Positions 11,101 to 47,498 of a stretch of 64,000 bases of DNA are shown here, in pieces. The translations under genes were made by a program, and so were the position numbers. Below the pieces are notes generated by a model. The model saw nothing but the letters and a program-made list of their open reading frames with translations, was not told where the DNA came from and ran no database searches. The DNA is taken from contig CAZMGP010000021.1 in assembly GCA_964565875.1 (NCBI GenBank), positions 9,094 through 73,093 on the forward strand. The letters are read 5' to 3'. The DNA is from an uncultured Enterobacteriaceae bacterium (GTDB lineage Bacteria > Pseudomonadota > Gammaproteobacteria > Burkholderiales > SG8-39). Each line of letters begins with the position of its first letter. The first letter of the stretch is position 1.

Positions 11101-12612
11101 TTAGCCGAGGAACAGGCGGTAAGCGGGATTCTTGCTCTCGTCCCAGAAGGGATAGCCGAGTTCGTGCAGGAAGCGGTGGAACTGCGCCATTTCCTTCGGC
11201 GGCACCTGCATGCCCACCAGCACCCGGCCGTAGTCGGCGCCGTGGTTGCGGTAGTGGAACAGGCTGATGTTCCAATCCGGCCGCATGCTGTTCAGGAACT
11301 TCATCAAGGCGCCGGGCCGCTCGGGAAATTCGAAGCGGTAGAGTAGTTCGTGCTTGGCGAGCGGCGCGTGCCCGCCGACCAAATGGCGCACGTGCAGTTT
11401 CGCCATTTCGTTGTCCGACAAATCGATGGTCTTCAGGCCCTGATGGCGCAGCTTGCGGATCAGGCGCTCGGTCTCTTCGCGGTTGTGCACCTCGACGCCG
11501 ACGAACACATGCGCCTCTTTCGCGTCGGCGATGCGGTAGTTGAATTCGGTGACGTTGCGCGCGCCCAGCGTCGCGCAGAATTTCTTATAGCTGCCGGGGC
11601 GCTCGGGAATGGTCACGGCGAGGATGGCTTCGCGGTGCTCGCCCACCTCGGCGCGCTCGGCGACGAAACGCAGGCGGTCGAAATTGGTGTTCGCGCCGCA
11701 GGCAACCGCGACGAAGGTGTGGCCGCGCACGCCCTTCTGTTCGACATAGGCTTTGACGCCGGCGATGGCGAGCGCGCCCGCCGGCTCGAGGATGGAGCGC
11801 GTTTCCTCGAACACGTCCTTGATCGCGGCGCAGGTCTCGTCGGTGTCGACCAGGATGATGTCGTCGACCAGTTTCTTGCACAGGCGGAAGGTTTCGCGTC
11901 CCACCTGCTTCACCGCTACGCCGTCGGCGAACAGGCCCACCTGCGCCAGGCGCACGCGCCGGCCGGCCTTGAGCGAGCGCGCCATGGCGTCCGAATCCAC
12001 CGGCTGCACGCCGATGATCTTGATCTCCGGGCGCAGGCGCTTGACGTAGGCGGCGATGCCCGAGATCAGTCCGCCGCCGCCGATGGCGACGAAAATGGCG
12101 TCGATCGGCCGCGTCGTCTGGCGCAGGATTTCCATGCCTATGGTGCCTTGCCCCGCGATGACGTCTGGGTCGTCGTAGGGATGGACGAAGGTGAGCTTGC
12201 GCGCGCGCTCCAGCTTCAGCGCGTGGCGATAGGCCTCGTCGTAGGAATCGCCCTGCAGCACGACTTCGGCGCCGCGCGCCATGACCGCATCGACTTTGAT
12301 GCGCGGCGTGGTGACCGGCATCACGATCACCGCCTTGGTGCCCAGGCGCTGCGCCGCGAGCGCCACGCCCTGCGCATGGTTTCCCGCGGAGGCGGCGATG
12401 ACGCCGCGCTTGAGCTTCACTACGGGGAGCTGCGCCATCTTGTTGTACGCGCCGCGCAGCTTGAACGAGAATACCGGCTGCACGTCCTCGCGCTTCAGCA
12501 GCAGCCGGTTGCCGAGCCGCGCCGACAGGATGGGCGCGTACTCCAGGGGCGACTCGACGGCGACGTCGTAGACGCGAGCTTTGAGGATCTTTTCCAGATA
12601 ATCCGGTTGCAT
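11101..12612 (-). CDS. ilvA: Threonine ammonia-lyase, biosynthetic
   Basis: Taken from ATG 12612 (MQPDYLEKILKARVYDVAVESPL...KREDVQPVFSFKLRGAYNKM, PLP lysine motif). Has two C-terminal ACT-like regulatory repeats. 503 aa. Confidence 0.9.
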   Translation of the reverse strand: MQPDYLEKILKARVYDVAVESPLEYAPILSARLGNRLLLKREDVQPVFSFKLRGAYNKMAQLPVVKLKRGVIAASAGNHAQGVALAAQRLGTKAVIVMPVTTPRIKVDAVMARGAEVVLQGDSYDEAYRHALKLERARKLTFVHPYDDPDVIAGQGTIGMEILRQTTRPIDAIFVAIGGGGLISGIAAYVKRLRPEIKIIGVQPVDSDAMARSLKAGRRVRLAQVGLFADGVAVKQVGRETFRLCKKLVDDIILVDTDETCAAIKDVFEETRSILEPAGALAIAGVKAYVEQKGVRGHTFVAVACGANTNFDRLRFVAERAEVGEHREAILAVTIPERPGSYKKFCATLGARNVTEFNYRIADAKEAHVFVGVEVHNREETERLIRKLRHQGLKTIDLSDNEMAKLHVRHLVGGHAPLAKHELLYRFEFPERPGALMKFLNSMRPDWNISLFHYRNHGADYGRVLVGMQVPPKEMAQFHRFLHELGYPFWDESKNPAYRLFLG

Positions 12613-33255: not shown

Positions 33256-33272
33256 TGGCGCGCCCGACAGGA
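33256..33272. repeat. Distal att direct repeat (TGGCGCGCCCGACAGGA)
   Basis: Exact 17-bp copy of the 3'-terminal 17 nt of the tRNA-Arg gene (complement strand) found at 47422-47438. Confidence 0.8.
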
Positions 33273-33308
33273 TGAATCTGGGCACTGGCTAGAGATTATA
33301 ACCTTGCT

Positions 33309-33599
33309 CTAACCGCGGATGTTCGCAACGGCGATGCCTTGCGCGGCGCAATTACTCGTGTCGATGCCGTCCGCGCCGGTCGCCGCTACCGCGATCAAGC
33401 GAAGATCGGGCAGTTGTTGCACCGCCTCTGCTGTAAGTCGTGTCCTGTTTACGATCGCGACCGCGGCACCGATCAAGCGCGCCACCACTTCTTCTGGCCG
33501 CGTGTAACCGTATTCGATCAATCTATGCGCGAAGCCTGGCTTGCGCTGGTGAATCTGCGAGGCGATAGTGGCACGGTCGAGACAGACGATTTTCCGCAC
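33309..33599 (-). pseudogene. Truncated D-isomer-specific 2-hydroxyacid dehydrogenase (N-terminal 96 codons only)
   Basis: GTG start; MRKIVCLDRA...LRLIAVAATGADGIDTSNCAAQGIAVANIRG is the N-terminal substrate-binding lobe. The NAD-binding GxGxxG domain and the catalytic residues (about 220 aa) are missing. The ORF stops 37 bp from the att repeat. Confidence 0.7.
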
Positions 33600-33600
33600 G

Positions 33601-35655
33601 TCAGATTGAGGGGCGCGCGTGCAGGCAACGTTTTGCCGCGGTGACGACCGCCGCTGAGGTGATGCCGAAATGCTGATAGAGGACGTCGGCAGGTCCGGAG
33701 GCGCCGAAGCCGGTCATGCCGACGAATTCGCCGAACTCGCCAAGGTAACGGTCCCAGCCGAAACGCGCGGCCGCCTCAACTGCCACCCGTGCGCCAGTTG
33801 CCGGGAGGATGGACGATCGGTACGCCTTGTCTTGCGCTTCGAACAGTTCCCAGCTCGGCATTGAGACCACGGCTGTTGCTATGCCCTCGGACTGCAGCAT
33901 CGAGCGAGCCTGCAGGGCGAGCGTAACCTCCGATCCGGTCGCCAGGAGCGTAACCTCGCGACTGGCGCCATCGGCCTCGGCCAGCACGTAAGCGCCTCGC
34001 CGTGACAGGTTTTCGTCCGCGTGCAGGCTGCGTACGCTCGGCATCGCCTGTCGCGCAAAAATCATCGATACCGGGCCAGTGCGATGCTCCAGCGCGATCT
34101 CCCAGCATTCCGCCGCTTCCACTGCGTCGGCGGGCCGGAACACCAGCATGTTGGGCATGGCGCGCAACGCAGCGAGAATCTCGACGGGTTGATGGGTGGG
34201 CCCGTTCTTGCCCACACCGATGGAATCGTGGCTGAACACGAACTTTACCGGCAAGCCCATCAGGGCTGCCATGCGTAGCGATGGGCGTTCGTAATCGGCA
34301 AATGCGAGGTAGGTGACCGCAAGAGGAATAATTCCGCCATGCGCGGCCATGCCTACGGCCATCGCCCCCATAACGTGCTCGCGTACGCCGCAGTGCACAT
34401 AAGCACCGCTTCGGTCTTGTGCGGTAAACGCCTTCAGACGACGTTTGTGACTGGTGGGCGCCTCCAGATCGGCGCATGCCACCATGCGCTCGGGCAAGAG
34501 TTCGACCAGCAAATCGTTGATCTCGCCTGAGAGCATGATTCCGCCTTGCGGCGGATTCTGCGCGGGTGCGCCGCGCTTGTATTCGAGCAGTTTGTCGCGC
34601 CATCCATCGGGCAGTTCTCCCGCAATGACGCGATCGAACTCCGCTCGGTCTGCGTCGGACAAGGCCGCACGGCGCTCTTGCCACGCCTTGTACTCTGCAG
34701 CGCTGCGCCGGCCCGCGGCCCGCCACGTGCTTAGCACTGCCGCGGGCACTTCGAACGGCGGATGGGGCCAACCGAGCGCTTCCCGCGCCGCCTGCGCATC
34801 TTCATCATATAGCCTGGCGCTGTGACCGCCGCGCTGACCTTGCAGACGCATGATGCCTCGCGCGATGACCGTACGGCAGGCAATCAAGGATGGACGCGGA
34901 TCTCGCTTAGCCTGCGCAATGGCGGCGGATGCCGCCTCAATATCATGACCGTCAATCTCGATCACATGCCAATCTGCCACTCGGAATCGCGCAGCGACAT
35001 CCTCGCTGATCGACAGCGCCGTTCCACCGTCGTCGGTGATGCGGTTGTCGTCCCAGAACAGAACCAGCTTGCCGAGTCGCAGATGACCTGCCAGCGCGAT
35101 CATTTCTTGTCCGATGCCTTCCTGCAGGCAACCGTCGCCGACGAAGGCGTAAGTAAAATGGTTTACCAGGTTCGCGCCGAAACGCGCGTTCAGATACGCC
35201 TCGGCGACCGCCATGCCCAGGGCGTTGGCGATCCCCTGACCCAGTGGTCCCGTCGTTACCTCGATGCCGTGCGCCGGGTTGTGTTCTGGATGACCTGCGC
35301 AATGTGAGCCCAATTCGCGGAATCGCTTGATCTCGTCAAGCGAGATCGCCTCATAACCGGTCAGATACAGGAGCGAATAGAGCAGCATCGATCCGTGACC
35401 GTTGGAGAGCACGAAGCGGTCGCGATCCGGCCAAGTCGGGTCTGCAGGATTGAACTTCAAATGGCGAGAGAAAAGCGCAGTGGCGATCTCCGCCATGCCC
35501 AGAGGAACGCCCTGGTGGCCCTCAGTGGCACGCACGATCGCGTCAATCGACAGGAAGCGGATCGCATGCGCCAGCAACTGCGAATCGACTCCAGTAGCGG
35601 AAACAGGACGCTCCCCAATCTCCCGCGCGTTCGAATTACTTGCCATCGGCGTCAT
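33601..35655 (-). CDS. tkt: Transketolase (full-length, 684 aa)
   Basis: GHQGVPLGMAEIATALF...RDRFVLSNGHGSMLLYSLLYLTGY...GPLGQGIANALGMA...GDGCLQEGI are canonical TPP-binding motifs. Confidence 0.9.
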   Translation of the reverse strand: MTPMASNSNAREIGERPVSATGVDSQLLAHAIRFLSIDAIVRATEGHQGVPLGMAEIATALFSRHLKFNPADPTWPDRDRFVLSNGHGSMLLYSLLYLTGYEAISLDEIKRFRELGSHCAGHPEHNPAHGIEVTTGPLGQGIANALGMAVAEAYLNARFGANLVNHFTYAFVGDGCLQEGIGQEMIALAGHLRLGKLVLFWDDNRITDDGGTALSISEDVAARFRVADWHVIEIDGHDIEAASAAIAQAKRDPRPSLIACRTVIARGIMRLQGQRGGHSARLYDEDAQAAREALGWPHPPFEVPAAVLSTWRAAGRRSAAEYKAWQERRAALSDADRAEFDRVIAGELPDGWRDKLLEYKRGAPAQNPPQGGIMLSGEINDLLVELLPERMVACADLEAPTSHKRRLKAFTAQDRSGAYVHCGVREHVMGAMAVGMAAHGGIIPLAVTYLAFADYERPSLRMAALMGLPVKFVFSHDSIGVGKNGPTHQPVEILAALRAMPNMLVFRPADAVEAAECWEIALEHRTGPVSMIFARQAMPSVRSLHADENLSRRGAYVLAEADGASREVTLLATGSEVTLALQARSMLQSEGIATAVVSMPSWELFEAQDKAYRSSILPATGARVAVEAAARFGWDRYLGEFGEFVGMTGFGASGPADVLYQHFGITSAAVVTAAKRCLHARPSI

Positions 35656-35666
35656 GACTTGCTCCG

Positions 35667-36671
35667 TCAGCCGAGCCAGCCCTTGATGCGACGTGCCAGT
35701 GCCTCGCGACTGATGCCGTAACGCTCGTGCAGTGTCGGCAGCGCCCCGGCGTCGAGGAAGGCGTCGGGGAGACCGGCTAGTTCAAAACGAGCCGGCTGCA
35801 CGCGGTGGCGCATCAGCGCGCTCGCCACTGCCTCCCCCAAACCACCCACCACGGAGTGGTTCTCGGCCACGACGACCAGCCGGTGCTTGTAACGCACCGC
35901 TTCGACGATGGTCTCCTCGTCCAGCGGCTTGATGGTGGGACAGTGCAGCACCGCGACACTCACTTTGTCACCAGCCAGTGTCTCGGCCGCCTCCAGCGCA
36001 CGCATGGTCATGAATCCGCTGGAGATCACGACCACGTCTGCGCCGTCGCGCAATTGTTTGGCCTTGCCCAGCTCGAAACGGTAGTCGTACGCATCGAGCA
36101 CGAGCGGGACGTTACCCCGAAGCAGGCGCATGTAGACGGGGCCTTTGTGCGCATAAATCTGCGGCACGGCCTGCTCAATATCGAGCGCGTCGCAGGGATC
36201 GACAATGGTCATGCCCGGGATGGCGCGCATCATGGCGAGGTCTTCAGTGGCCTGATGGCTTGGGCCATACCCGGTTGTCAGGCCCGGCAGCGCACAACAC
36301 ATCTTGACGTTCAGGTTTTCCTCGGCGATCACCTGGTGGACAAAGTCGTAAGCGCGCCGTGTCCCGAAGACCGCATAGGTCGTCGCGAACGGCACAAATC
36401 CCTCCTTGGCAATGCCGCCGGCCGCACCCATGAGCAACTGCTCAGCCATGCCCATCTGGTAGAACCGCTCAGGGAATGCCTGAGCGAACAGGTGCAAGTC
36501 GGTGTACTTGGAAAGATCGGCCGTCATGCCGACAATGTCAGTGTGCTTCTCGGCGAGTTCCACCAGCGCTTTGCCGAACGGTGCTGCTTTGACGCGTTGC
36601 CCTTCCGCCGCGATCGACGCGATCATCGCCGACGTCGTCAGGCGCGGCTTTTTTTCCGTGACGGTGCTCAT
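35667..36671 (-). CDS. Split transketolase, C-terminal (pyrimidine-binding) subunit
   Basis: 334 aa. FGKALVELAEKHTDIVGMTADLSKYTDL..FPERFYQMGMAEQLLMGAAGG is the TktB-type subunit. It overlaps the upstream subunit gene by 4 nt. Confidence 0.85.
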   Translation of the reverse strand: MSTVTEKKPRLTTSAMIASIAAEGQRVKAAPFGKALVELAEKHTDIVGMTADLSKYTDLHLFAQAFPERFYQMGMAEQLLMGAAGGIAKEGFVPFATTYAVFGTRRAYDFVHQVIAEENLNVKMCCALPGLTTGYGPSHQATEDLAMMRAIPGMTIVDPCDALDIEQAVPQIYAHKGPVYMRLLRGNVPLVLDAYDYRFELGKAKQLRDGADVVVISSGFMTMRALEAAETLAGDKVSVAVLHCPTIKPLDEETIVEAVRYKHRLVVVAENHSVVGGLGEAVASALMRHRVQPARFELAGLPDAFLDAGALPTLHERYGISREALARRIKGWLG

Positions 36672-37534
36672 GCGGGGGCTCCTTCGAATTGCATCTGTGG
36701 TTGGTTCCGGTCAAGAACATCGATCGCCTGCTTCCACTCGGGCGGGTCGACTCTTATGAAATGGTTCTTCTCGCGCTGTTCAAGGAAGGGCACACCTTTG
36801 CCCATCAGCGTGTCGAAGAGGATGACGCGCGGCTTCGCGTCCTGCAGCCCGCGCGCCGCGTCGAACGCGGCAACGACTGCCGGCAAGTCATTACCGTTCA
36901 CGCGCTGCACCTGCCATCCGAAGGCGGCCCACTTGTCCGCTAGTGGCTCGAAGCCGAGGACTTTGCTTGACGGACCATCGGCCTGCTGATTGTTGATGTC
37001 CACCAAGCAAATCAGGTTCGCGAGCCTGAGGTGCGCCGCCGCCATTGCCGCCTCCCAGGTGGATCCCTCGTCGAGTTCGCCGTCGGACATCGAGTTGTAG
37101 ACAAAGGCGGGATTGCGCTTCTGCGCCAGACCCAACGCCATGCCCACGGCGATCGGCAGTCCCTGCCCGAGCGAGCCACCGGAGATCTCCATGCTTGGTG
37201 TGTAACTTGCCATACCCGACATCGGCAAGCGGCTATCGTCGCTGCCGTAGGTGTCGAGTTCGGACTCAGGAATGAGGCCCGCCTCGATGAGCGCTGCGTA
37301 AAAAGCGATGGCATAGTGGCCATGCGATAGCAGGAAGCGGTCGCGGCCCTCCCAATGCGGATCGTCCGGGCGGAATTTCATGGCGTGGCAGTAAGCGACG
37401 GCCAGAACGTCGGCATAGCCGAGCGCCTGACCGATGTAGCCTTGTCCCTGCACCTCGCCCATGCGAAGGGCGAAGCGCCGGATCCGATAGGCCCGCTGCG
37501 CAAGCTTGGCGAGCGTGGCAGTGTTATTGCTCAT
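36668..37534 (-). CDS. Split transketolase, N-terminal (TPP-binding) subunit
   Basis: 288 aa. GYIGQALGYADVLAVAY...RDRFLLSHGHYAIAFYAAL...GSLGQGLPIAVGMA is the TktA-type subunit. Confidence 0.85.
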   Translation of the reverse strand: MSNNTATLAKLAQRAYRIRRFALRMGEVQGQGYIGQALGYADVLAVAYCHAMKFRPDDPHWEGRDRFLLSHGHYAIAFYAALIEAGLIPESELDTYGSDDSRLPMSGMASYTPSMEISGGSLGQGLPIAVGMALGLAQKRNPAFVYNSMSDGELDEGSTWEAAMAAAHLRLANLICLVDINNQQADGPSSKVLGFEPLADKWAAFGWQVQRVNGNDLPAVVAAFDAARGLQDAKPRVILFDTLMGKGVPFLEQREKNHFIRVDPPEWKQAIDVLDRNQPQMQFEGAPA

Positions 37535-37567
37535 CGAAGTTTCTCCTGTGTAAGCAGTTTTCGCGAC

Positions 37568-38827
37568 TCAGAATATAGTCAGCCAGGGCAGATAGGCGAA
37601 CGCGAGCAGGAGCCCCAGCCCTACGGCATAGAACGGAATCAACTCGATTACGACGTCGCCGATGCGGACCTTGGCCAGCGTGCTGGTAATGAACAAAGTC
37701 GTGCCGATCGGCGGGTGATACAGTCCGATCGAAAGGTTCACGATCATCATTATGCCCAGTTGGACGGTGTCCATCCCCACCGCGGCCGCGAGCGGAACGA
37801 ACATCGGTGTCAGCAGGAGCACCGCCGCCGGCAGGTCGATGAACATCGCTGTCGCGAGCATGATCAGATTCATGGCAAGGATGATCAGCCATGGCGATTT
37901 AAGTGTCTGCGTTGCGTAGCGCGTGAATTCGGCTGGCAACTGCTCGTAGGTCACGATCCAGCCTACGATGCTCGATGCCATGATGATCAGCAGGACGACT
38001 CCGGTGGAAATTCCGGCCTCGACGGCGGCGGTTTTGATCTTCGCCACAGTGAGATCGCGATAGATCAGCCCGGCGACGAGCAGCGCGTACAGCGTCGACA
38101 TCACGCTCACCTCGGTCGGCGTGGCCACACCGAAGCGCAGGAAGATGATGATCAGGACCGGCATCGCCAGGGCGGGACCCGAGTGTGCGAGCTGGCGCCA
38201 GAATGCCGGCCACTGAAAGGGCGTGGTGTCGCGCGGGAAATTGCGGCGGCGCCCCTGCACGTAACACACGGCCATAAATCCGGCGCACATAAGCAAGCCA
38301 GGAAGAAGGCCTGCGACGAACAGCGCGCCGATCGAGGCGCCCGAGACCAGAGCGTAGATGATCATCGGGATCGACGGCGGAATCAGAATGTCGATGGTAG
38401 CTGCGGCCGCAAGCGAACCGGCCGCAAACGCGGGCGGATAGCCGAGCTTCTTCAGCCAGGGAATCAGCATCGATCCGATCGCGGAGGCGTCGGCTACGGC
38501 CGAGCCTGACACGCCGCCGAAGATGGTGGAGGACAACACGCCGACCTGCGCCGGCCCGCCATGGATGCGCCCGATCAGCATCGAAAGCAAAGTCACCAGA
38601 CTTTGCCCGAGTTTGCCGCTCACCATCAGCGCCCCCGTCATCATGAAGAACGGGATGGCGATCAGCGGAAAGCTTTGCGTCTGCGCGAGCATCTGCTCGA
38701 CCGCAAGGTGGACTGGAATCTTGTCCGCGATAAGCAGTCCGCCGACCGATGCCAGCACGAGCGCGTGCGCGATCGGGATCGATAGGAGCGCAGCCGCAAT
38801 GAAGAGCGCGATGATCAGCGTTGTCAC
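37568..38827 (-). CDS. dctM: TRAP transporter large permease (DctM family)
   Basis: The GTG at 38827 follows the dctQ stop after a 1-nt spacer (VTTLIIALFIAAALLSIPIAHALVL...). Polytopic, about 420 aa. The longer track ORF adds an Arg-rich extension overlapping dctQ. Confidence 0.85.
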   Translation of the reverse strand: MTTLIIALFIAAALLSIPIAHALVLASVGGLLIADKIPVHLAVEQMLAQTQSFPLIAIPFFMMTGALMVSGKLGQSLVTLLSMLIGRIHGGPAQVGVLSSTIFGGVSGSAVADASAIGSMLIPWLKKLGYPPAFAAGSLAAAATIDILIPPSIPMIIYALVSGASIGALFVAGLLPGLLMCAGFMAVCYVQGRRRNFPRDTTPFQWPAFWRQLAHSGPALAMPVLIIIFLRFGVATPTEVSVMSTLYALLVAGLIYRDLTVAKIKTAAVEAGISTGVVLLIIMASSIVGWIVTYEQLPAEFTRYATQTLKSPWLIILAMNLIMLATAMFIDLPAAVLLLTPMFVPLAAAVGMDTVQLGIMMIVNLSIGLYHPPIGTTLFITSTLAKVRIGDVVIELIPFYAVGLGLLLAFAYLPWLTIF

Positions 38828-38828
38828 G

Positions 38829-39353
38829 TTAAACGCCCTGCCTCGCGTCCGTCGTCGCATCGTCATGTCCGTGCGCATCCGCCTTCCCAGCCCAGACGTC
38901 GGGGAGCCGGCACAAAGTCGCCAGGGCAAGCAGCGCGAAACCGACCATCAGGCAGCCGACGCTCGCCGAGCCCGGCACTTTCAGCACGGGTGTGCGTTCG
39001 TCTGCTGCGACCTGCAGTACCGGCCAGGAGATCCACGCCAATGAGGTATACAGCGCGGCCACGGTTAGCGATCCGGCTGCAAGCACCCAGCGCCGTGCCG
39101 CGCCGAGCTTTTGCGTCAGGATTACAACCGAGATGTGCGAGCCGTGCTGGGCCGCGAGCACGACGCCGGCCATGATGAGCCACGGAAACAGCAATTCCGG
39201 AAGCTCGGAGGCCCACGCCAGGCTGCCGCCCGCCATGTAGCGCAGCGGTACATTGACCCCGAGGATGGCAAACACCACGGCGAGCGTCACGTACAGCACG
39301 CCGCGGCAAACAAAACCGATCGCACTATCGATAAGTCGTAAGAGTGCCATCAC
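38829..39353 (-). CDS. dctQ: TRAP transporter small permease (DctQ family)
   Basis: 174 aa with four hydrophobic helices, lying between the dctP and dctM homologues. Confidence 0.8.
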   Translation of the reverse strand: MMALLRLIDSAIGFVCRGVLYVTLAVVFAILGVNVPLRYMAGGSLAWASELPELLFPWLIMAGVVLAAQHGSHISVVILTQKLGAARRWVLAAGSLTVAALYTSLAWISWPVLQVAADERTPVLKVPGSASVGCLMVGFALLALATLCRLPDVWAGKADAHGHDDATTDARQGV

Positions 39354-39363
39354 GGATTTCGCC

Positions 39364-40350
39364 TTAGTTTGCCTGGCTGACGACGCGCTTGACGAAATCG
39401 CCGATCGAACCAGACGACCACTTGCTGTAGACGGATTTGGTCGCTTCGACGAAGGCTTTGTTATCGACCGTGTCGATCTGTACGCCCTTCGCTTTCAGCT
39501 CCGCAGCAAGTTTGTCGTCCGCTTCTTTAGACAATTTGCGCTGTAGCTGGGTGGCTTCGGCGGCCGCTTCAGCAAAGATCTTCTGGTCCGCAGCGGCTAG
39601 GCGGTCCCAGGTGCGTTTGCTGACCACGAAAGGCGTGGCCTCGTATTTGTGGCCGGTCAGGCTGAGATACTTCTGCACCTCGTAGAGCTTCGACGACGCG
39701 ATGTTCGCGAGCGGATTTTCCTGGCCGTCCACCACCCCCTGCTGCAACGCGACATAGAGCTCAGCAAACTTGATCTGCTGCGTGGCCGCACCGAGGGCCT
39801 GCATGATATCTGCGGTCATCTCGTCGGGCGGGATGCGGATCTTCAACCCTTTCACGTCCGCCGGCGACTTGATCGGCCGCTTGCTATTGGTGATGTGGCG
39901 GATGCCGTTGTCCCAGTAACCGAGGACAACCATGCCTTTGGCCGCGTTCAGCTTGGCCAGATCGGCACCGATCGGGCCGTCGAGCAGCTTCCAGGCCTTT
40001 TGCACGTCATTGAAAAGGAACGGCAGTCCGAGTGCGGCGTACTCCGGGACGACGTTCGCCATTGCACCCTGGCTATTGGCCGACATGTCCAGCGTGCCGG
40101 AGCGCAGTGCGGTAACCATTGCTGCGTCATCGCCGAGTTGGGCGGAATGGGCCACTTGGATCTCAATGCGACCGGCCGTCTTCGCCTTCACCCTTTCGGC
40201 GAATAGCACCGCCGCCTCGTGCCGCGGATTACCGGGCGCGGCGCCGTGTCCGAGAGTCAGTTTGACCGCTTGTGCCTGCACCGCAAGCGGCGCCATCAGT
40301 GCGCCGAGCGCCAAGGCAATCGCCGCGCGAAAGAATACTTTGCGTTCCAT
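39364..40350 (-). CDS. dctP: TRAP transporter substrate-binding protein (DctP family)
   Basis: Taken from ATG 40350: MERKVFFRAAIALALGALMAPLAVQAQAVKLTLGHGAAPGNPRHEAA...GTLDM is the DctP pattern. Confidence 0.85.
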   Translation of the reverse strand: MERKVFFRAAIALALGALMAPLAVQAQAVKLTLGHGAAPGNPRHEAAVLFAERVKAKTAGRIEIQVAHSAQLGDDAAMVTALRSGTLDMSANSQGAMANVVPEYAALGLPFLFNDVQKAWKLLDGPIGADLAKLNAAKGMVVLGYWDNGIRHITNSKRPIKSPADVKGLKIRIPPDEMTADIMQALGAATQQIKFAELYVALQQGVVDGQENPLANIASSKLYEVQKYLSLTGHKYEATPFVVSKRTWDRLAAADQKIFAEAAAEATQLQRKLSKEADDKLAAELKAKGVQIDTVDNKAFVEATKSVYSKWSSGSIGDFVKRVVSQAN

Positions 40351-40393
40351 GATTTCCCCCCTCCTTCGAAAATGCGCCGCCAATCGGCGCCGA

Positions 40394-41143
40394 TTAGTGA
40401 ATCAACATGCCGCCATTTACATCGAGCGTAATGCCCGTGAGATAGCTGGAAAGATCGCTCGCCAGGAACAGACAGCAGTTCGCGACATCGAGCGCATCAC
40501 CGAGCCGATTCAACGGAATCCCTTTCAGGATTTCCGCCTTCAGTTCGGGCGTGAGCTTTCCGCCGGTGATGTCGGTCTGGATCAGGCCTGGCGTCACAGA
40601 ATTGACGCGCACGTTGTCCGGGCCCAGTTCGCGCGCCATGGCCTTATGCAGACCGAGAACGCCCGCCTTGGCTGCGGAGTAGTGCGGTCCGCCGAAGATA
40701 CCGCCACCGCGCTGAGCCGAAACCGACGAAAGGCAAATGATCGATCCCGCTTTGCGCTGGCGCATGTGCGGGATCACGGCTTGACTCATGTAGAGCGTGC
40801 CCCGCAGCGACACATCGGTCACGGCTTCGTAGTTTTCTGGTTGAATTTCCATCAGTTTCAGCGGTTGCGTGATGCCGGCGTTGTTCACGAGTATGTCGAC
40901 GCGTCCGAGCTTCTCAATGACGGCCGCTGCCGCGCGTTCGCAATCGCTCTTTTTTGTCACGTTGCACGCGAGCCCGATGTGGTCGGAGCCAATGTCGGCA
41001 GCGGCAGCCGCCGCCGCGTCCGCACTCAAATCCAGTATGGCAACACGCGCGCCCTGTTCTGCGAAGAGTCGAGCCGTCGCTTTACCGATACCACGCGCCG
41101 ATGCAGCCCCCGTAACGATGGCAACCCTGTCCTTTAAAAGCAT
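40394..41143 (-). CDS. SDR-family oxidoreductase (FabG-like)
   Basis: Taken from ATG 41143: MLLKDRVAIVTGAASARGIGKATA (TGxxxGxG motif), NNAG, and YSAAK (YxxxK catalytic motif). Confidence 0.85.
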   Translation of the reverse strand: MLLKDRVAIVTGAASARGIGKATARLFAEQGARVAILDLSADAAAAAAADIGSDHIGLACNVTKKSDCERAAAAVIEKLGRVDILVNNAGITQPLKLMEIQPENYEAVTDVSLRGTLYMSQAVIPHMRQRKAGSIICLSSVSAQRGGGIFGGPHYSAAKAGVLGLHKAMARELGPDNVRVNSVTPGLIQTDITGGKLTPELKAEILKGIPLNRLGDALDVANCCLFLASDLSSYLTGITLDVNGGMLIH

Positions 41144-41290
41144 GAGACCTCCCTCTGTCAGTCGGTGACATGCAAAGCGCCGCCACCGCAATTCCGTGTC
41201 TGGAATTCTGGGCATGGATGATCATGAAGACAAGAGATACTTTATCAGCGTAAGATGACGTTTTGTCATGTTACCTACATAGCGATAGTG

Positions 41291-42172
41291 ATGAGCTCGC
41301 ATCCGCCGATCAGCAATTTGCTTGCTTTCGAGACCGTCGCCCGACGCCGCAGTTTTGCGGTGGCCGCCAAGGAACTACACCTCACCGCCTCGGCGGTGAG
41401 TCATCAGGTTGCGCGTCTGGAATCTGCATTGGGCGTGCGCTTGTTCGAGCGCAATGCGCACGGCGTGAAACTGAGCGCTGCAGGCGAGCGCTATTTGACG
41501 CGTGTGAGCGGAGCGCTTGCAGCCATCAACAGCGCGAGCGACGACCTGCGCCAGGGCGTCGGCAACAGTTTGTATCTGCACGCTTCGCCCAGCTTTGCCA
41601 GCCTTTGGCTGATGCCCCGCCTCAGCGACTTCACGCGGTCGCATCCAGAGGTCTCGCTCAATCTTTCGGCTGCGCATACGCACAGTGATTTCGCGCTCGG
41701 ACAGGCCGATCTCGACATCCGCTATGGCGTGCCGCAGTGGCCGGATCTTGAAATCGTTCCACTCTTCGAGGAAAGGATTCTTCCCCTGGCCAGCCCGTGG
41801 TTCATTCGCGAGCATAGGCTGCGGCGAGCGGAACGTTTGCGCGATGCCCCGCTGATACAAAGCAACGTTAATGTCGTACAGTGGTCCGACTGGCTGCGTC
41901 GCTTCACGAATTTGCAAACGCCTGAGCGCTTCGCGCTGCGATTCGATCGCGCGCAGATGTCACTCGATGCGGCGATACAGGGTCTGGGCATTGCGCTGGA
42001 AAGTGCCACCATTGCCGGCAAGCACATCCGCGAGGACAAGCTGCGGCCGGTTTTCGGACTCGACAAAGCGATCAAGGTTAAGGCGCATTTTGCGGTGTAC
42101 CCGGCGCGACACGCTCGGCGCCCCACTGTTGCGACTTTTCTGCATTGGTTGCATAGGCAGTCTGCAACGTAA
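41291..42172 (+). CDS. LysR-family transcriptional regulator (GcvA-like), divergent from the SDR-TRAP-transketolase operon
   Basis: Taken from ATG 41291: PISNLLAFETVARRRSFAVAAKELHLTASAVSHQVARLESALGVRLFER is the LysR wHTH domain. Confidence 0.85.
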   Translation: MSSHPPISNLLAFETVARRRSFAVAAKELHLTASAVSHQVARLESALGVRLFERNAHGVKLSAAGERYLTRVSGALAAINSASDDLRQGVGNSLYLHASPSFASLWLMPRLSDFTRSHPEVSLNLSAAHTHSDFALGQADLDIRYGVPQWPDLEIVPLFEERILPLASPWFIREHRLRRAERLRDAPLIQSNVNVVQWSDWLRRFTNLQTPERFALRFDRAQMSLDAAIQGLGIALESATIAGKHIREDKLRPVFGLDKAIKVKAHFAVYPARHARRPTVATFLHWLHRQSAT

Positions 42173-42486
42173 CGTCGGCAAGATACTTTGTTGGATCGGG
42201 GCATCGTCCAGAATGATTCCTTTGGCTCGATAGCGCCAGTTTGTCCTTAGAACATGTAGCAGAAGATCATCGGCGCAAAGCGGTCGGAAGGAATTTCGCG
42301 CTCAGAGCTACTGAATGGAGTGGAATCGTCGGTGTCGCCACCTCGCGACGACCGCCCGCAGCGCAAGCGAGGACGGACGCCGCGAGGCGGCGGACCTGGT
42401 CAGCCTGGCCCCCGTTGTGTAGTAACACGGGGGCCTACGGATACAACAGCCCCCTTTCTGCCCTCGTTTGCCTGATTCCAACTTTC

Positions 42487-43125
42487 CTAAAGCAATCCGC
42501 GCTCGGCAAAGCTCAGAGTCTTGTTGCCTGCGATGATGAAGTGATCCAGGGTTTTGACGTCAACCAGCGCCAATGCCTGCTTTAGCGTACCCGTAAGCAG
42601 TTCGTCTGCCCGGCTGGGCTCGGCTACGCCGGAGGGGTGATTGTGGGCAAAGATCACGGCGGCAGCATTGACCTTTAGTGCGGCCTTTACCACCTCCCGA
42701 GGATAAACGCTTGCCTGCGTCAGCGTGCCCCGGAACAGTTCTTCGGTAGTAATAACCCGGTTCTGGGCGTCCAGAAAGATCACGGCAAAGACTTCATGCG
42801 GCAGACCTGCAAGGCGAAGTCTAAGGAAATCACGCACAGCGGCCGGACTGCATAGGGCGTCCCGGTGCTTCAGCTCTTCGGCCAGGGATCGGGCGGCTAG
42901 TTCCTTGGCTGCCTGCAGCTTGGTCAGGGGGTCGCCCGTATAGCTGCGCTTCACTTCAGAACAAAAGAGGTCGCCCGCTTCCTGCGGGGTCTGGTGCAGC
43001 AGGGCATACAGGGACCCTTTCGCATTGCGTAGCAGAGTTTCCGCCGTCTTACGGTTACCTAACAGCACGGTAAGCAGTTCGATATCGGAAGATGCCGAGA
43101 TAATCATTTCAGAGTTGAGCAGCAT
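42487..43125 (-). CDS. radC: RadC-family JAB/MPN domain protein
   Basis: AAGGAGG RBS. The C-terminal JAMM motif context is [20 protein letters not shown]. RadC is a typical passenger of integrative elements. Confidence 0.85.
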
Positions 43126-43389
43126 TTGCGCCTCCTTTGCGCTGGTTAAAAACTGCTGCTCATGCGAAGTTCTCTTCGCCTCCCCCTGGGGGGACGGGAG
43201 GGGGAGGTTTAGGTTGGAAATGCTTTAGCCGCCCAGCTTCGGCGGCTTGTCTTTGCTGCTCACGCTTTCGTCCCCTTCACTCGAAGATGAGGGGCGAAAG
43301 AAAGAGAGCAGCGACCATGCCGCGTTGGGCGGTGCGTTTCGGATGGGCTACGGGGGGCAAGGCGACGCGGCAGTTCGCGTCGTAGGTTT

Positions 43390-43490
43390 GCAACCGCGTG
43401 ACAGGAAGCTTTGTCCTGGCGCGTGCGTTGCGGGGGCGAGGTAAGCAGCAATCACGTGACAGGGTGGTTCATCCTGGCGCGTGGGTTGCG
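43390..43490. repeat. Two tandem copies (period 58 bp) of a ~43-bp unit, each an imperfect long hairpin
   Basis: 43390-43432 is GCAACCGCGTGACAGGAAGCTTTGTCCTGGCGCGTGCGTTGCG. 43448-43490 is GCAATCACGTGACAGGGTGGTTCATCCTGGCGCGTGGGTTGCG. In each unit, GTGACAGG.. and ..TCCTGGCGCG, and the outer GCAA./.GTTGC, are self-complementary. Confidence 0.6.
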
Positions 43491-43622
43491 TAAGGCTGGC
43501 GCCTCTATTTGTGGGGATCATGGCTTGCCGGGCCCGCGAGAACTAGCGACGATTAACGAGCATCGAAGAGATCCAGCGAACTCCAAGCGCAATATCGAGC
43601 GGGAATTGGCGACCTGTATAAA

Positions 43623-43651
43623 TTGACAGCCTCTAGGATTTCGTCTAAGCT
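43623..43651 (+). promoter_or_regulatory. Sigma70-like promoter for the 43805-45628 module
   Basis: TTGACA, a 17-nt spacer, then TAAGCT, ~150 nt upstream of ATG 43805. It is followed by repeated AAGCTT/CAGCTT palindromic half-sites at 43647-43674. Confidence 0.4.
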
Positions 43652-43804
43652 TTGCGAACAGCTTGGATAGAAGCTTGCCGCCCACCAGTAGGCGCAGTCG
43701 CTCCGACACTATCGGCAATTCAAATCTTTTTTCGGTGAGCTTAGTCGCAGCCGGATCATAAGTGGGCGGTGATTCAATGCTGCATGGACTAGGAGCACTG
43801 AGAG

Positions 43805-44356
43805 ATGCCTGATGTAATCGTCATTCCCTCCGCGGCGGTTGAGGCGCTACGCCGCAAGGCCAAGAAGCTACGCAAGGAACAAGGGGTGCCGCATCACGCG
43901 GCGCTCGATGCGGTTGCGCGCGCGGGCGGCCGGTTTCCCGACTGGCACCATTTGATCGAAGCGGCAAAGGCGACGGAGCCCGCCGAAGAAGCCTTCAAGC
44001 ACGGCCTTGTGATCGGCATGGACATCAAGGACGCGCTGCAGATGCCTGCGGCGAAACTTACCCATTTCATCGAAGATGAACGACTGCAGTACTTTGTCTT
44101 CGATGACTTCGACCTGCACCCGACGGGTGGCCTGGGGGTGGACGAAGATTTGCGCATCGACTCGGTTTATCAAACCGTGTTCTACCGGTCGCGCCGGATC
44201 GTGCCCGCATCGCTTGAAGAAGCGTTCAAATTATGCCGCGCGGATTTCTTCTTCGCGCCACGGTACGTGCGCCTGGGCGGCATCGTCATGTTCGATGTGG
44301 TGGTGGGTGAAGAGGGCGAAGAGGATGAAGATGGCAAAGGGGGGCGCGATGAATGA
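43805..44356 (+). CDS. Hypothetical protein (183 aa) with acidic C-terminal tail
   Basis: AGGAG RBS. Protein-like sequence. The N-terminal segment (ALRRKAKKLRKEQGVPHHAALDAVARAGGRFPDWHHL) resembles a short motif I recall from many island-borne hypothetical proteins. Function unknown. Confidence 0.5.
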   Translation: MPDVIVIPSAAVEALRRKAKKLRKEQGVPHHAALDAVARAGGRFPDWHHLIEAAKATEPAEEAFKHGLVIGMDIKDALQMPAAKLTHFIEDERLQYFVFDDFDLHPTGGLGVDEDLRIDSVYQTVFYRSRRIVPASLEEAFKLCRADFFFAPRYVRLGGIVMFDVVVGEEGEEDEDGKGGRDE

Positions 44357-45440
44357 AGCACCGGCGCCTGGAGTAAAGCTCCTGCTCTTCGGGTGCGACA
44401 CCATCGAATGCGCCTATTACCTGCAGCCGGGACGCGGGCAGGGTCTGGACTTTGGCGGGCTCATCCTGGAACGCGAGCGCCTGCGCCAGAGCAAGAGCCG
44501 GGATCCCAAGCTCGTGACCTTGGGCGGGATGGAATTCCTGCTGCAGCGCTACGGTTCGAGCTCCGGCTACCCGATCGTGCTCGATAACGCCGACATGACC
44601 ATCCAATGCGGCGAGCTCAATAGTCCGTCTTTCTTCGTCACCTACCGTTCGGAAGCCCTCTGGCGAGATTCCCCGCAGGTGCTGCACGACCGGTTCATGT
44701 CCTGGGCGGATGGCCTGGGATTCCAGGCGCAAAAGCGCGAAGGCTTATCGAGGGTAGATTTCACCTTCGATTATCACCTGCCAGCGGTCGATTTCGATGA
44801 GGAGAGCTTCGTATCGCTCTCCTCTGCCGATAGCAAGTTCCGGCGCGACCGCAAGCTCCGGGGGGTGGCCTTCGGGCAGTCCGACGTACGGCTGCGGGTC
44901 TATGACAAGGTGGCGGAGATCGAGGAGCAAAGCCTCAAGGTCTGGTTCTATGACCTCTGGGGCCGTAAGGACGAAGTCTGGCGCATCGAATGGCAGGTAA
45001 GGAAGGAAGTCTTGAAGCGCTTTGGCATCCGCACCTTTGCGGATCTGGCGGATCAGCAAGGCGACGTACTGCGTTACCTCGCCACGGAACACGATACCTT
45101 GCGCATCCCGAACTCGGATCCGAATCGCTCACGCTGGCCGCTGCACCCTCTTTGGATCGACCTGCAGGCGCAAATCGCGCAGCTCCCGGCCCAGGGCGTG
45201 TATCGGGAGATGGACCCCCAGGCTGCGCTGCGCGAGCGCCTCTACCGCCTCGCCATCAGCATGTACGGCAATCTGAAGCGCCTGGCGGCGCTCGATGGCG
45301 TACAGCGCGGCGCGGCGGAGGTATCCAAGATCGAGGCCATGGAACGGCTAAGTGAGCTCGTTAGCCGGGTGCACGATCCTCTCAACTGGCAGATCGACGT
45401 GCAAAAGCGCATCGACCAGGTGAGGCTGGGGCAATGGTGA
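44349..45440 (+). CDS. Replication initiation factor (Rep_trans / phage gene II-like rolling-circle initiator) family protein
   Basis: ATG 44349 follows AAGGGGGG and overlaps the upstream ORF by 8 nt. Motifs LSRVDFTFDY, VRLRVYDKVAEIEE and EVWRIEWQVRKEVL fit the RvD..D / YDK..E / wRvE pattern of this family as I remember it. Confidence 0.55.
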   Translation: MNEAPAPGVKLLLFGCDTIECAYYLQPGRGQGLDFGGLILERERLRQSKSRDPKLVTLGGMEFLLQRYGSSSGYPIVLDNADMTIQCGELNSPSFFVTYRSEALWRDSPQVLHDRFMSWADGLGFQAQKREGLSRVDFTFDYHLPAVDFDEESFVSLSSADSKFRRDRKLRGVAFGQSDVRLRVYDKVAEIEEQSLKVWFYDLWGRKDEVWRIEWQVRKEVLKRFGIRTFADLADQQGDVLRYLATEHDTLRIPNSDPNRSRWPLHPLWIDLQAQIAQLPAQGVYREMDPQAALRERLYRLAISMYGNLKRLAALDGVQRGAAEVSKIEAMERLSELVSRVHDPLNWQIDVQKRIDQVRLGQW

Positions 45441-45628
45441 TGCTGCAGGCGATCGTCGATGCGCTGAACGCCCGCAAGAACAAAGTGCTGCTGCTTGCGC
45501 AGGCTGCGCTGCCGGATACGCAGTTTCAGGCATTTCGCAAGCTCTTTCTCGGTGAATTTGGCAGGGACGGACTGGAACGGGAGTTGGAACACCTCTTCGC
45601 CGGGAAAGACAAGGAACGGAGCCGCTAG
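45434..45628 (+). CDS. Small hypothetical protein (64 aa)
   Basis: The ATG overlaps the Rep-like stop (ATGGTGA), suggesting translational coupling. Helical sequence with no recognisable family. Confidence 0.4.
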   Translation: MVMLQAIVDALNARKNKVLLLAQAALPDTQFQAFRKLFLGEFGRDGLERELEHLFAGKDKERSR

Positions 45629-45666
45629 GGCGGGAATAGACATGCAAGAAAGGAGGTGCGCTATGT

Positions 45667-45837
45667 GTGCGAGACGACACGAACAATTCCGAAGTCCGAA
45701 ACGTCAATGTGGTGTTTAGGCGGGACTTCAAAGATGGGACGCTCTCAGAACGGGAGCGGGAGTGCCTGCGCGCATTCCTGCCCGGACTGATAATGGAGCT
45801 CGTCCAAACAGGTTTGCAGGATCACGACGAGGAGTAA
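45667..45837 (+). CDS. Possible small ORF (56 aa, GTG start) ending 6 nt before the recombinase ATG
   Basis: Not in the track because it is under 60 aa. VRDDTNNSEVRNVNVVFRRDFKDGTLSERERECLRAFLPGLIMELVQTGLQDHDEE. AGGAGG lies 10 nt upstream. A competing 18-codon ATG ORF at 45663 has better spacing. Confidence 0.25.
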   Translation: MRDDTNNSEVRNVNVVFRRDFKDGTLSERERECLRAFLPGLIMELVQTGLQDHDEE

Positions 45838-45843
45838 TCGATC

Positions 45844-47451
45844 ATGGCGGCAGCGCTCTATGCTCGGGTATCGACCACACGGCAGGCGGAGAACGAGCTC
45901 TCCATTCCGGACCAGTTGCAGCAGATGCGCGACTGGTGCAAGGCGCAGGGCATGCTCGTCGCCAAGGAATACGTGGAGCCGGGGGCCTCGGCGACAGATG
46001 ACCGGCGCCCGGTGTTCCAGGACATGATCGCGGATGCCACGATCAGCCCGGCGCCCTTCGAGGTCATAGTGGTGCATAGCCTGTCGCGCTTCTTTCGGGA
46101 CGCGATCGCCCTGGGGCTGTATGAGCGAAAGCTCGCCAAGCATGGCGTGAAAGTGATCTCGATCACGCAGCAGACGAGTGATGACCCCTCAGGCGAGCTC
46201 ACCCGGCGCATCTTCTCGGTGTTCGATGAGTATCAGAGCAAGGAAAACGCCAAGCACACCTCCCGTGCCATGCGCGAGAACGCAAGACGCGGGTACTTCA
46301 ACGGCTCGCACGCCCCCTTTGGCTACCAGGTGGTCGCTACCGAAGCGATCGGCAACCGCGGCCGCAAAAAGAAAAAACTCGCCATCGATGAAGGGGAATC
46401 AACCATCGTGCGGCGCATCTATGAACTCTATCTCGAAGGGCTCGACGGCAGGACGATGGGGATCAAGGAGATCGCCAAATACCTGAACGCCAGGGGGCAA
46501 CTCATGCGCGGCCGGCCCTGGCGCATCCAGAAGGTGCACGAGGTGCTATCTGGCCGGGCCTATCTCGGTGAGCACTACTTCAACGTCAAGGACTCCCGCA
46601 CCAAGAAGAAGCGCCCGCCGTCTGAGTGGATCAAGGTCATGGCCGATCCGATCGTGGACGAGGAAACCTTCGAGCGGGTGCGCCAGCGGCGCGAGGAACG
46701 CTCGCCGGCCACGCAGGCGCCACGCCTGGTGTCTTCCCCTACCCTACTCACAGGCTTGCTCAAATGCGGGCATTGCGGCGCGGGTATGACCTTGACGACG
46801 GGCAAGAGCGGCCGCTACCGGTATTACAAGTGCACGAATCGCTTGAGTAAGGGCAATGCGCAGTGCGCAAGCGCGAATGTCCCGATGGAGAAACTTGACG
46901 AACTGGTGATCGAGCGGCTCGCTGATCGCGCCTTCACCCCGGAACGGCTGCAGCTGATGCTGGCAGAAGCACGCCATCTGCTGAACGCCAGGCAATCGGA
47001 AGACAAGGCGAAGCTTGCGACCCTGCAAGCGGATTTGAAGCGTGCGGAGGGCCGGCTAAATCGGCTCTACGATGCGCTTGAAACCGGTGTGGTCGAGCTC
47101 GATGACACCTTCCAGCGCCGGGCTCACCAGGCCAAGGCTGGGCGCGAATCGGTGCTGATCGAAATGGCGGGCTTGAGAAGGCGTCAGGCACTGCCGCTTG
47201 CGCGCATCCTGCCAAGCCATGTTGCGGCGTTCTCCAAGGTCATACGGGCGCGGCTTCGGGACAAGTCCTCAGGATTCGCCAAAGACTACCTGCGTGCCGT
47301 GGTGGACGAGATCCGTATCGAAGGGAAGGCAGCGACGATTTCGGGAAGTTATGAACGGCTGGTCGCAGCGGTTGCAAACAAAAAAGAGGGCACCGGTCTA
47401 GTGCCCTCTTTTATGCGTGAATGGCGCGCCCGACAGGAGTCGAACCTGTGA
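45844..47451 (+). CDS. Large serine recombinase (integrase of the island)
   Basis: [14 protein letters not shown] carries the catalytic Ser. A resolvase-type domain ([11 protein letters not shown]), a recombinase domain, a Cys-rich zinc-ribbon segment (CGHCGAGM...[15 protein letters not shown]) and a long helical tail follow. The last 30 nt overlap tRNA-Arg. Confidence 0.85.
47422..47438. repeat. Proximal att direct repeat, the 3' end of tRNA-Arg (TGGCGCGCCCGACAGGA)
   Basis: Identical to 33256-33272. It covers part of the T-stem 3' arm, the acceptor 3' arm, the discriminator base and CCA. Confidence 0.8.
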
Positions 47452-47498
47452 CCTTTGGCTTCGGAAACCAACACTCTATCCAGCTGAGCTACGGGCGC
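47422..47498 (-). tRNA. tRNA-Arg (anticodon CCG), 77 nt with encoded CCA
   Basis: Folded by hand. Acceptor GCGCCCG/CGGGCGC, D-arm GCTC/GAGT, anticodon arm TTGGT-[TTCCGAA]-GCCAA, variable loop AGGTC, T-arm ACAGG-[TTCGACT]-CCTGT, discriminator G, CCA. Confidence 0.9.

Follow-up and report, generated by a model that had tools for sequence, protein, structure and literature searches.

Described systems and the island compared with them

Islands that target tRNA genes usually use tyrosine integrases, and serine integrases, which need a 2-bp crossover, normally leave no long repeats. The locus analyzed here brings a serine recombinase, a tRNA gene and a 17-bp repeat together. It lies in a stretch of 64,000 nucleotides (the window) from contig CAZMGP010000021.1 of assembly GCA_964565875.1, where a 14.2-kb segment between the two repeat copies ends in a gene for a large serine recombinase (LSR) whose last codons run into a tRNA-Arg(CCG) gene on the opposite strand. 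We argue, with a probability of roughly 0.65, that this segment is an integrative island inserted by its own LSR into the CCA/acceptor end of the tRNA gene, and that insertion swaps the C-terminal tail of the LSR. The closest described system, likened here by description only, is that of the Dehalococcoides ssrA islands, in which the use of a ~540-aa CcrB-like LSR, DsiB, leaves 20 bp of the tmRNA 3′ end as a direct repeat (PMC3146451). Common to both are an LSR of ~540 aa at the island end beside the attachment (att) site, a stable-RNA gene targeted at its tRNA-like 3′ end, and small islands that lack transfer genes and occur in tandem arrays (PMC3146451). In contrast to the present family, the Dehalococcoides islands target tmRNA and not tRNAs, and they encode a second, small serine recombinase, DsiA, of which no counterpart was seen in the island of the window; their account is silent on an open reading frame (ORF) crossing the att site or on alternative tails (PMC3146451).

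A preliminary description of the window, made from its letters alone, had named the integrase of the Ralstonia filamentous phages phiRSM as a precedent. The integrase phiRSM Int (Askora et al., 2011) is indeed a serine recombinase, with an attP formed by the 3′ 13 bases of a tRNA-Ser gene (PMC4471427). The precedent thus holds for a serine-family recombinase that uses a tRNA 3′ end as att site in Betaproteobacteria, but not for an LSR: phiRSM Int is a small enzyme of the resolvase/invertase type without Recombinase and zinc-ribbon domains, and its attP lies between two genes and not in the recombinase ORF (PMC4471427). The LSR of the window, with 535 aa and both of these domains, is not of the phiRSM type. 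A change of a C-terminus by integration is known from cluster N/P mycobacteriophages (Broussard et al., 2013), whose attP is placed within the coding region of the repressor, overlapping a tRNA gene, and where integration removes the C-terminal SsrA-like degradation tag of the repressor (PMC5764923). The window resembles this integration-dependent immunity in having attP in a coding region and a C-terminus altered by integration; the mycobacteriophages split a repressor and use a tyrosine integrase, whereas here the serine integrase itself is split (PMC5764923).

Among the NCBIfam models, CcrB gave the best match to the LSR (8.8e-41, residues 4-493), a likeness to the SCCmec recombinases. Insertion by the Ccr LSRs takes place at the 3′ end of a conserved gene, rlmH, and generates direct repeats of 15-20 bp; their hosts are Gram-positive, and CcrA and CcrB work as a pair. 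With 140.2 bits against a cut-off of 900 for NF047343, the LSR of the window is not a Ccr equivalog. In domain order, zinc ribbon and coiled coil it resembles the integrases of SPbeta (SprA/YokA), A118/LI and TP901-1, and a predicted attP of ~50 bp with outer inverted motifs would be another trait shared with phage serine integrases. For SPbeta, A118 and TP901-1, attB sites are known from protein genes or intergenic DNA, and no integrase gene of theirs is known to cross attP. In phage lambda, the sib element, located across attP from int, affects int expression only in the non-integrated state and acts on the RNA via an RNase III site; unlike sib, the sequence across attP is here part of a translated frame. 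The literature searched contained no account of such a tRNA-targeting LSR family, nor of a serine integrase whose gene extends across its own attP and has a conserved alternative C-terminus; this absence is not proof of novelty.

The island, its integrase gene and the wider family

The features of the island are listed in Table 1. A Pfam search of the 535-residue ORF found, in the order typical of LSRs, the domains Resolvase (PF00239; 1.4e-27, residues 3-150), Recombinase (PF07508; 5.6e-19, residues 185-286) and Zn_ribbon_recom (PF13408; 5.3e-18, residues 301-359). In an alignment of 113 homologues, R8 and S10 of the catalytic opening YARVSTTRQ, which includes the nucleophilic serine, are invariant, as are C308, C311 and C330 of the four-Cys zinc ribbon, with C341 nearly so. 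PHROG 95 "integrase" matched at 2.3e-104. Among solved structures, the serine integrases of SPbeta, TP901-1 and A118 come closest, a distant likeness (E 2e-12 to 4e-7), and AlphaFold2 (AF2) predicted two helices (366-414 and 421-448) with a predicted local distance difference test (pLDDT) score of 85-95, as in a coiled coil. ARAGORN placed the tRNA-Arg(CCG) gene such that its 3′ end is read in antisense by the final 30 nt of the LSR gene (9 codons and the stop), and the TGG codon of W527 doubles as the complement of the tRNA CCA. These results agree with the preliminary description, which had proposed the LSR architecture, an ORF end inside the tRNA/att repeat and an integrated form ending in WRARQESNL.

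Table 1. Features of the island and its attachment sites, in window positions
Feature	Position	Strand	Basis or remark
Island body	33273..47421		Pfam content, GC, absence from relatives
attL copy of the 17-bp repeat TGGCGCGCCCGACAGGA, far island end	33256..33272		sequence match
attR copy of the 17-bp repeat, tRNA positions 1-17 from the CCA end	47422..47438		exchange interval 47422-47432 inferred
LSR gene, integrated-form ORF	45844..47451	+	535 aa, ends ...WRARQESNL and stop; Pfam, PHROG 95
tRNA-Arg(CCG), integration target	47422..47498	-	ARAGORN; same tRNA at the empty site of two relatives (L147, L148)
P-arm motif GTGCCC-NNN-TTT (codons V-P-S-F), candidate recombinase-binding	47401..47412	+	kept in family loci
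Intrinsic terminator serving the reconstituted tRNA, in the coding part of the LSR gene	47382..47412	-	13-bp stem, 6 GC pairs, T-run
P′-arm motif GAA-NNN-GGGCAC, mirror of the P-arm motif	33274..33285	+	window sequence, metagenome junctions
P′ "exon"	33273..33312	+	last base of D codon, 12 codons (ESGHWLEIITLL), stop; conserved in 28 copies
Conserved module orfB (~363 aa) and overlapping orfC (64 aa), 5′ of the LSR gene	44349..45628	+	tblastn

The segment between the repeat copies stands out from its surroundings by a GC content of 0.58-0.63, compared to 0.65-0.70 outside, and contains, according to Pfam, three transketolase genes, genes for a TRAP transporter, an SDR protein, a LysR protein and RadC, and then orfB, orfC and the LSR gene. 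Two genomes of the same genus (G011, locus L147; G007, locus L148) lack it: there, the left flank with a TctC gene, the identical tRNA-Arg(CCG) gene and the right flank are contiguous, with no more than 92-142 bp between the TctC gene and the tRNA gene. An intact tRNA gene and a displaced 3′ fragment flank the island and the integrase gene adjoins the tRNA gene, which is the Islander signature; the tyrosine-family integrase that Islander also asks for is missing, and the LSR is the sole recombinase of the island.

With respect to the enzyme responsible for insertion, Pfam scans of the island ORFs revealed no tyrosine integrase, and a six-frame search of the whole genome with PF00589 gave 13 matches, none of them on the contig of the window (C21). 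Both searches bear out the earlier claim that the island has no tyrosine integrase; within the island, only the serine recombinase is a candidate integrase. The LSR might instead be a passenger or a resolvase, with the island inserted by another enzyme such as a tyrosine integrase acting in trans. The 13 tyrosine recombinases elsewhere in the genome could provide such an activity, and other islands with tyrosine integrases use the same tRNAs; in locus L070, a P4-type tyrosine integrase gene lies 220 nt past a 45-nt tRNA fragment. This explanation is nevertheless extremely improbable, given a contig without any tyrosine recombinase, att-arm motifs that are mirrored and spaced as in LSR attP sites, and the fixed in-frame geometry of the LSR gene and the CCA end in 56 loci with a complete tRNA from several phyla. 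Mobilization of the island by a tyrosine integrase was rejected, all PF00589 matches being off the contig.

This geometry was followed through the family, which comprises thousands of full-length relatives; at least 573 loci with an LSR relative are present in species-representative genomes. We fetched 80 of these loci and 31 loci from IMG/VR, and 103 had an alignable C-terminus. In all 103, the TGG codon of the W coincides with the complement of CCA, and in 56 the ORF runs into a complete minus-strand tRNA called by ARAGORN. The 56 targets are Arg-ACG/CCG/CCT/TCG, Asn-GTT, Glu-TTC/CTC, Ser-TGA/GGA, Ala-CGC and Lys-CTT. Among the best 120 cluster representatives of the homologues, 113 have a tail encoded by a tRNA, with the pattern W-[RCL]-[AP]-...-[DE]-S-N... 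that corresponds to the translated antisense of a tRNA 3′ end, four have a tail of the DE.GHW type and three another tail. The recurrence of the same ORF/tRNA geometry in dozens of unrelated genomes is more than chance. The preliminary description had called the pairing of an LSR with a tRNA target uncommon, which is true of the literature but not of nature, as the counts of loci show.

In a maximum-likelihood tree of 52 complete LSR proteins, the target tRNAs cluster, with 8 changes compared to a mean of 26.2 after shuffling, and a single branch (support 82/84) has all 21 users of tRNA-Asn on the same side. The hosts belong to the Beta-, Gamma- and Alphaproteobacteria, Thermodesulfobacteriota, Nitrospirota, Nitrospinota and Bdellovibrionota, and cultured carriers include Vogesella alkaliphila, Azonexus hydrophilus, Polaromonas eurypsychrophila, Geobacter sp. 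AOG1, Devosia pacifica and Nitratireductor aquimarinus. The LSRs that target tRNA ends apparently form a large, undescribed clade, whose phylogenetic breadth counters the textbook view of tRNA genes as a preserve of tyrosine integrases. Integrases for conserved ends of tRNA genes might also serve as landing-pad tools in many bacteria.

Attachment-site layout and the place of exchange

For the description of the att sites, positions were counted from the tRNA end, with the T of TGG as position 1. The hexamer GTGCCC occurs at positions -21 to -16 in 80 of the 103 loci and is followed by NNN-TT[TC]. Since 80 of the 88 loci that encode Val-Pro at this place do so with exactly GTG CCC, the constraint acts at the DNA level. 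The opposite arm, P′, was read from the attL sites of the window and of loci L016, L029 and L048 and from 30 metagenome junctions, which serve as a sample of P′ arms and not as proof of excision; the pattern used to find these junctions left third codon positions free (GAR, GGN and CAY allowed). Nevertheless, all 30 junctions have GAA-NNN-GGGCAC at positions +19 to +30. The mirrored 12-bp motifs GTGCCC-NNN-TTY and RAA-NNN-GGGCAC bound a predicted attP of 51 bp centred on position 5, and the dyad symmetry, calculated without the pairs fixed by the pattern, peaks at position 5 to 5.5 (47426/47427) with 0.40, compared to a background of ~0.25. Judged by its letters, the predicted attP has about the size and layout expected of serine integrases, whose att sites are ~40-50 bp long and imperfectly dyad-symmetric.

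In the mechanism that we propose, an attP of ~51 bp would straddle the 3′ end of the recombinase gene. Its P arm, GTGCCC-NNN-TTT, would end the body of the ORF and share the terminator hairpin of the tRNA, and its P′ arm would first mimic the acceptor and T-stem strand of a tRNA and then carry GAA-NNN-GGGCAC. P′ looks like an old tRNA 3′ half, with an acceptor, a T-stem strand and then GAT-GAA where the tRNA has GATTCGAA.

The terminator in the window begins 10 nt past the tRNA end, and the P-arm motif forms the descending strand of its hairpin. A canonical terminator is present at the same place in 33 of the 103 loci, compared to 0.2 expected from shuffled sequences. This position of a canonical minus-strand hairpin indicates that the island supplies a new terminator to the tRNA, antisense in the last codons of the integrase gene. 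As the hairpin (47382-47416) has A-runs and T-runs on both sides, it could also end int transcripts before the stop codon at 47449; if so, non-stop mRNAs would result and trans-translation would come into play.

To locate the exchange, attL and attR copies and related elements were compared. The length of the repeat varies by element (12, 14, 17 or 18 nt). In loci L135, L112 and L029, attL and attR differ at the T-stem positions 12-15, and the attL versions are unable to pair with the 5′ strand of the host T stem (in L135, three of five pairs are broken). The T-stem bases of attL are thus element DNA, i.e., P′, and not the former 3′ end of the host tRNA gene. A difference at position 15 in L016 is wobble-compatible and not decisive alone. 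At junctions directly after intact or remnant LSR genes in L031, L033, L123 and L138, the P′ arms are tRNA-like for 6-9 nt only. Two pairs of near-identical elements in different tRNA genes narrow the interval as well. The elements L068 (Arg-CCG) and L072 (Arg-ACG) have no mismatch in the last 36 nt before the junction and first differ at position 7, and L039 (Glu-TTC) and L041 (Arg-CCT) have none in the last 42 nt and first differ at position 11; the tRNAs of the latter pair are identical at positions 1-10. The occurrence of near-identical integrases in different tRNA genes also shows that one enzyme is able to use several tRNAs of the same acceptor end.

These comparisons suggest that exchange is confined to positions 1-11 from the CCA end, probably to positions 1-6, in agreement with the centre of symmetry, and that the remainder of the 17-bp repeat is mostly the likeness of a tRNA-mimicking P′ half-site to the B′ half-site and not an overlap region. 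Exchange near CCA leaves the chromosome with nearly the whole tRNA gene; the island would contribute only the CCA-proximal bases and the new terminator. Of the earlier proposal that exchange occurs within the repeat, the first 6-11 bp are retained, and the full 17 bp as exchange region are not, in view of the attL/attR differences and the near-identical pairs. As an alternative, exchange could occur where the repeat meets the T loop (tRNA positions 16-17, its inner end), the place usually inferred for tRNA islands, in which case the island would supply the last 15-17 nt of the tRNA. The exact 17-bp identity does stop at the T loop, both attB half-sites would then fall into conserved tRNA sequence, and the same place was inferred for the Dehalococcoides ssrA islands with the LSR DsiB (PMC3146451). 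We consider exchange at the inner end improbable, because the attL T-stem bases of L135, L112 and L029 are incompatible with the host tRNA, the likeness of P′ to tRNA ends after 6-9 nt in the four loci named above, the near-identical elements diverge only from position 7 or 11 inward and the symmetry centre is at position 5. The attL/attR mismatches and the near-identical pairs led to the rejection of a crossover at positions 16-17. Exchange at the CCA end together with a tRNA-mimicking P′ half-site offers a testable account of how an enzyme with a 2-bp crossover comes to leave repeats of 12-18 bp.

In the left flanks of the attL sites of L016 (GTGCCC) and L048 (TAGCCC), a GTGCCC-like hexamer lies 11 nt from the tRNA end, compared to 15 nt in the P arms. 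This shift, seen in two cases only, is about that expected between the zinc-ribbon motifs of attB- and attP-type sites.

Alternative protein tails, the search for free forms and neighbouring genes

The ORF spans the point of exchange wherever the crossover exactly lies, and the LSR tail encoded by the free or tandem-junction form therefore differs from that of the integrated form: attP lies inside the ORF and integration changes the C-terminus. Integrated-form tails consist of 4-16 residues dictated by the tRNA past a variable fifth codon (ESNL in the window). Joining 47438 to 33273 gives the reading ...WRARQDESGHWLEIITLL followed by a stop, exactly as the preliminary description had predicted for a circular junction, and the excised-form tail predicted for the window is DESGHWLEIITLL. 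Its end, ...GHWLEIITLL and stop, fits the consensus of the family, in which the tail encoded across the P-P′ joint reads ...W-x4-DE-x-GHW followed by a hydrophobic end of 6-7 residues. Four full-length homologues (P0014, P0027, P0083 and P0120) have such a DE.GHW tail.

The P′ exon was analyzed further in 28 unique copies. The stop codon follows the W of GHW after 6-7 codons in 21 copies and after 6-9 codons in 24, and no comparable stop pattern was found in the other two reading frames of P′. In codons 15 and 17, the second base is T in 89% of the copies, giving V, I, L or F, and the first and third bases are near-random (H 1.7-1.9 bits), while the mean pairwise nucleotide identity over the 21 nt from nt 34 to nt 54 is 0.38. 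The same layout is present in five copies that are independent of the search pattern (window, L016, L029, L048 and L031). Since the DNA has diverged and the hydrophobic alternation and the position of the stop have been kept, the P′ peptide appears to be under purifying selection at the protein level; a DNA-binding site or shared descent would not be expected to leave this signature. The state-dependent tail suggested in the preliminary description thus gains strong comparative support from the four full-length homologues and the coding-type conservation of the 28 copies.

The tail swap might also be a neutral by-product, with P′ conserved by DNA-level constraints such as recombinase binding or a promoter or terminator at the island end. 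GATGAA and GGGCAC do not vary, not even at third codon positions, which marks a constraint on the DNA, the elements persist with whatever 4-16 residues the tRNA dictates, and the confidence of AF2 for the tail is low. This explanation is rather unlikely in view of the region past the motif, where copies with only 38% identity retain the alternating second-position T and the stop, and of the other two frames, which have no such stop pattern.

With regard to function, the tail encoded by P′ would be a working part of the enzyme in the state in which it integrates, and its loss on insertion would alter the activity or stability of the enzyme and so form a built-in readout of the state. Tentatively, we consider it possible that the two isoforms act as a state sensor, in which the P′ tail, made only where P and P′ are joined, is needed for or favours integration by attP x attB, or else marks the free-form enzyme for turnover, and the isoform with the tRNA-encoded tail behaves otherwise; the latter would be, e.g., competent for excision together with orfC, or inert. 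The P′ tails end in ...LLP, ...VII or ...VLLA and not in an obvious SsrA-like ...LAA. In the AF2 model of the attP-type protein P0083, the core has a mean pLDDT of 81 and residues 516-539 are disordered, and a complex prediction of the LSR core with the 33-residue P0083 tail gave a score of 0.02. Comparison of the sequences makes the geometry, the exchange at the CCA end and the conserved hidden exon appear as solid results, and the two isoforms may have a regulatory role. For practical work with serine integrases, directionality is the chief open question; an integrase gene that extends over its own attP, and whose hidden C-terminal exon is conserved at the opposite end of the island, offers a new and simple handle on directionality and regulation. 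If the state sensor proves true, control of directionality or dosage would be written into the att site of a family that lands on the universal CCA/acceptor end.

Free forms of the island were searched for in Logan contigs from the source sample, which is mine drainage and for which four DNA runs and no RNA run are listed. A clean empty site was not found in these contigs. A single record that skips 14198 contained 32 foreign letters, traced to the tRNA-Arg of another organism, and was rejected.

Several results speak against the proposal that the island was inserted by its own LSR at the CCA end with a swap of tails. The joint of 47438 to 33273 expected of an excised circle was not found in the source-sample Logan contigs, terminal overlaps were present in none of 35 whole short contigs, and most attP-type junctions from metagenomes (30 loci) are tandem or remnant arrangements and not free elements. 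The left attB half lies in flanking DNA that is not conserved even between congeners. In the Arg-type core TGGCGCGCC (window 47422-47430), which contains GGCGCGCC, all dinucleotides at positions 3-8 are palindromic. As serine integrases usually need a polar central dinucleotide at the symmetry centre, a polar crossover would have to sit in TGG or in CC (positions 8-10), a few bp off this centre. With respect to the tail, the more distant members L033, L037, L071 and L081 have P′ tails without GHW, and the beta strand that AF2 placed at 539-545 of P0083 is of low confidence (pLDDT ~57) and follows a disordered linker.

The tandem and remnant junctions have the order LSR 3′ remnant, core and P′ of the next island, and in L112, L135 and L136 the downstream island is complete, with its own LSR gene and tRNA-Arg. 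From such arrays it follows that members of the family can insert beside the P arm of a resident element and that an LSR located there carries a P′-type tail while integrated. Among the metagenome junctions L112-L141, many keep only 28-230 codons of the LSR 3′ end upstream of an intact site with P, core and P′. By this arrangement, the P arm with its terminator appears to outlive the decayed island and then to flank the next insertion.

Upstream of the LSR gene, the order orfB-orfC-LSR recurs through the family: tblastn detected orfB in 51 loci and orfC in 40, each time directly upstream of an LSR gene (among others in L001, L006, L009, L016, L018, L029, L040 and L081), so that a three-gene core is conserved in 40-51 loci. 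Neither orfB nor orfC matched any family in Pfam, PHROG or NCBIfam. Excision by LSRs requires a recombination directionality factor, for which orfC is a candidate; orfB may encode a replication or mobilisation protein.

In many loci (L010, L040, L050, L057, L066, L069, L070, L080, L085 and others, ~11576-11625), the LSR gene is followed by a ~45-nt tRNA 3′ fragment that is cut in the anticodon loop, and in L040 and L050 a complete tRNA-Asn gene lies 8-10 kb past it. The ORFs tested past the fragments in L010, L040 and L057 gave no match. A longer att core as an explanation of these fragments was dropped in favour of later insertion of other islands into the same tRNA gene, which is shown for L070 only.

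A distant member of the family (42% identity) was found on plasmids of Enterobacter and Klebsiella, where it follows Trb genes for conjugation. In the Enterobacter hormaechei plasmid pCAV1668-85 (NZ_CP011583.1, 5223-7614; L142), the gene for this LSR is preceded by trbL-F-G-I, a DUF6516 gene and an HTH gene. It ends early, after TGGCGCGCC, beside IS elements and the remnant of a class 1 integron (sul1, qacEdelta1, aadA1), and appears to encode the integrase of a conjugative element that a resistance plasmid has captured.

Within the island of the window, the gap between radC and the orfB module (43390-43490) contains two imperfect 43-nt direct repeats with 81% identity and a spacing of 58 nt, which could be an origin or an operator array.

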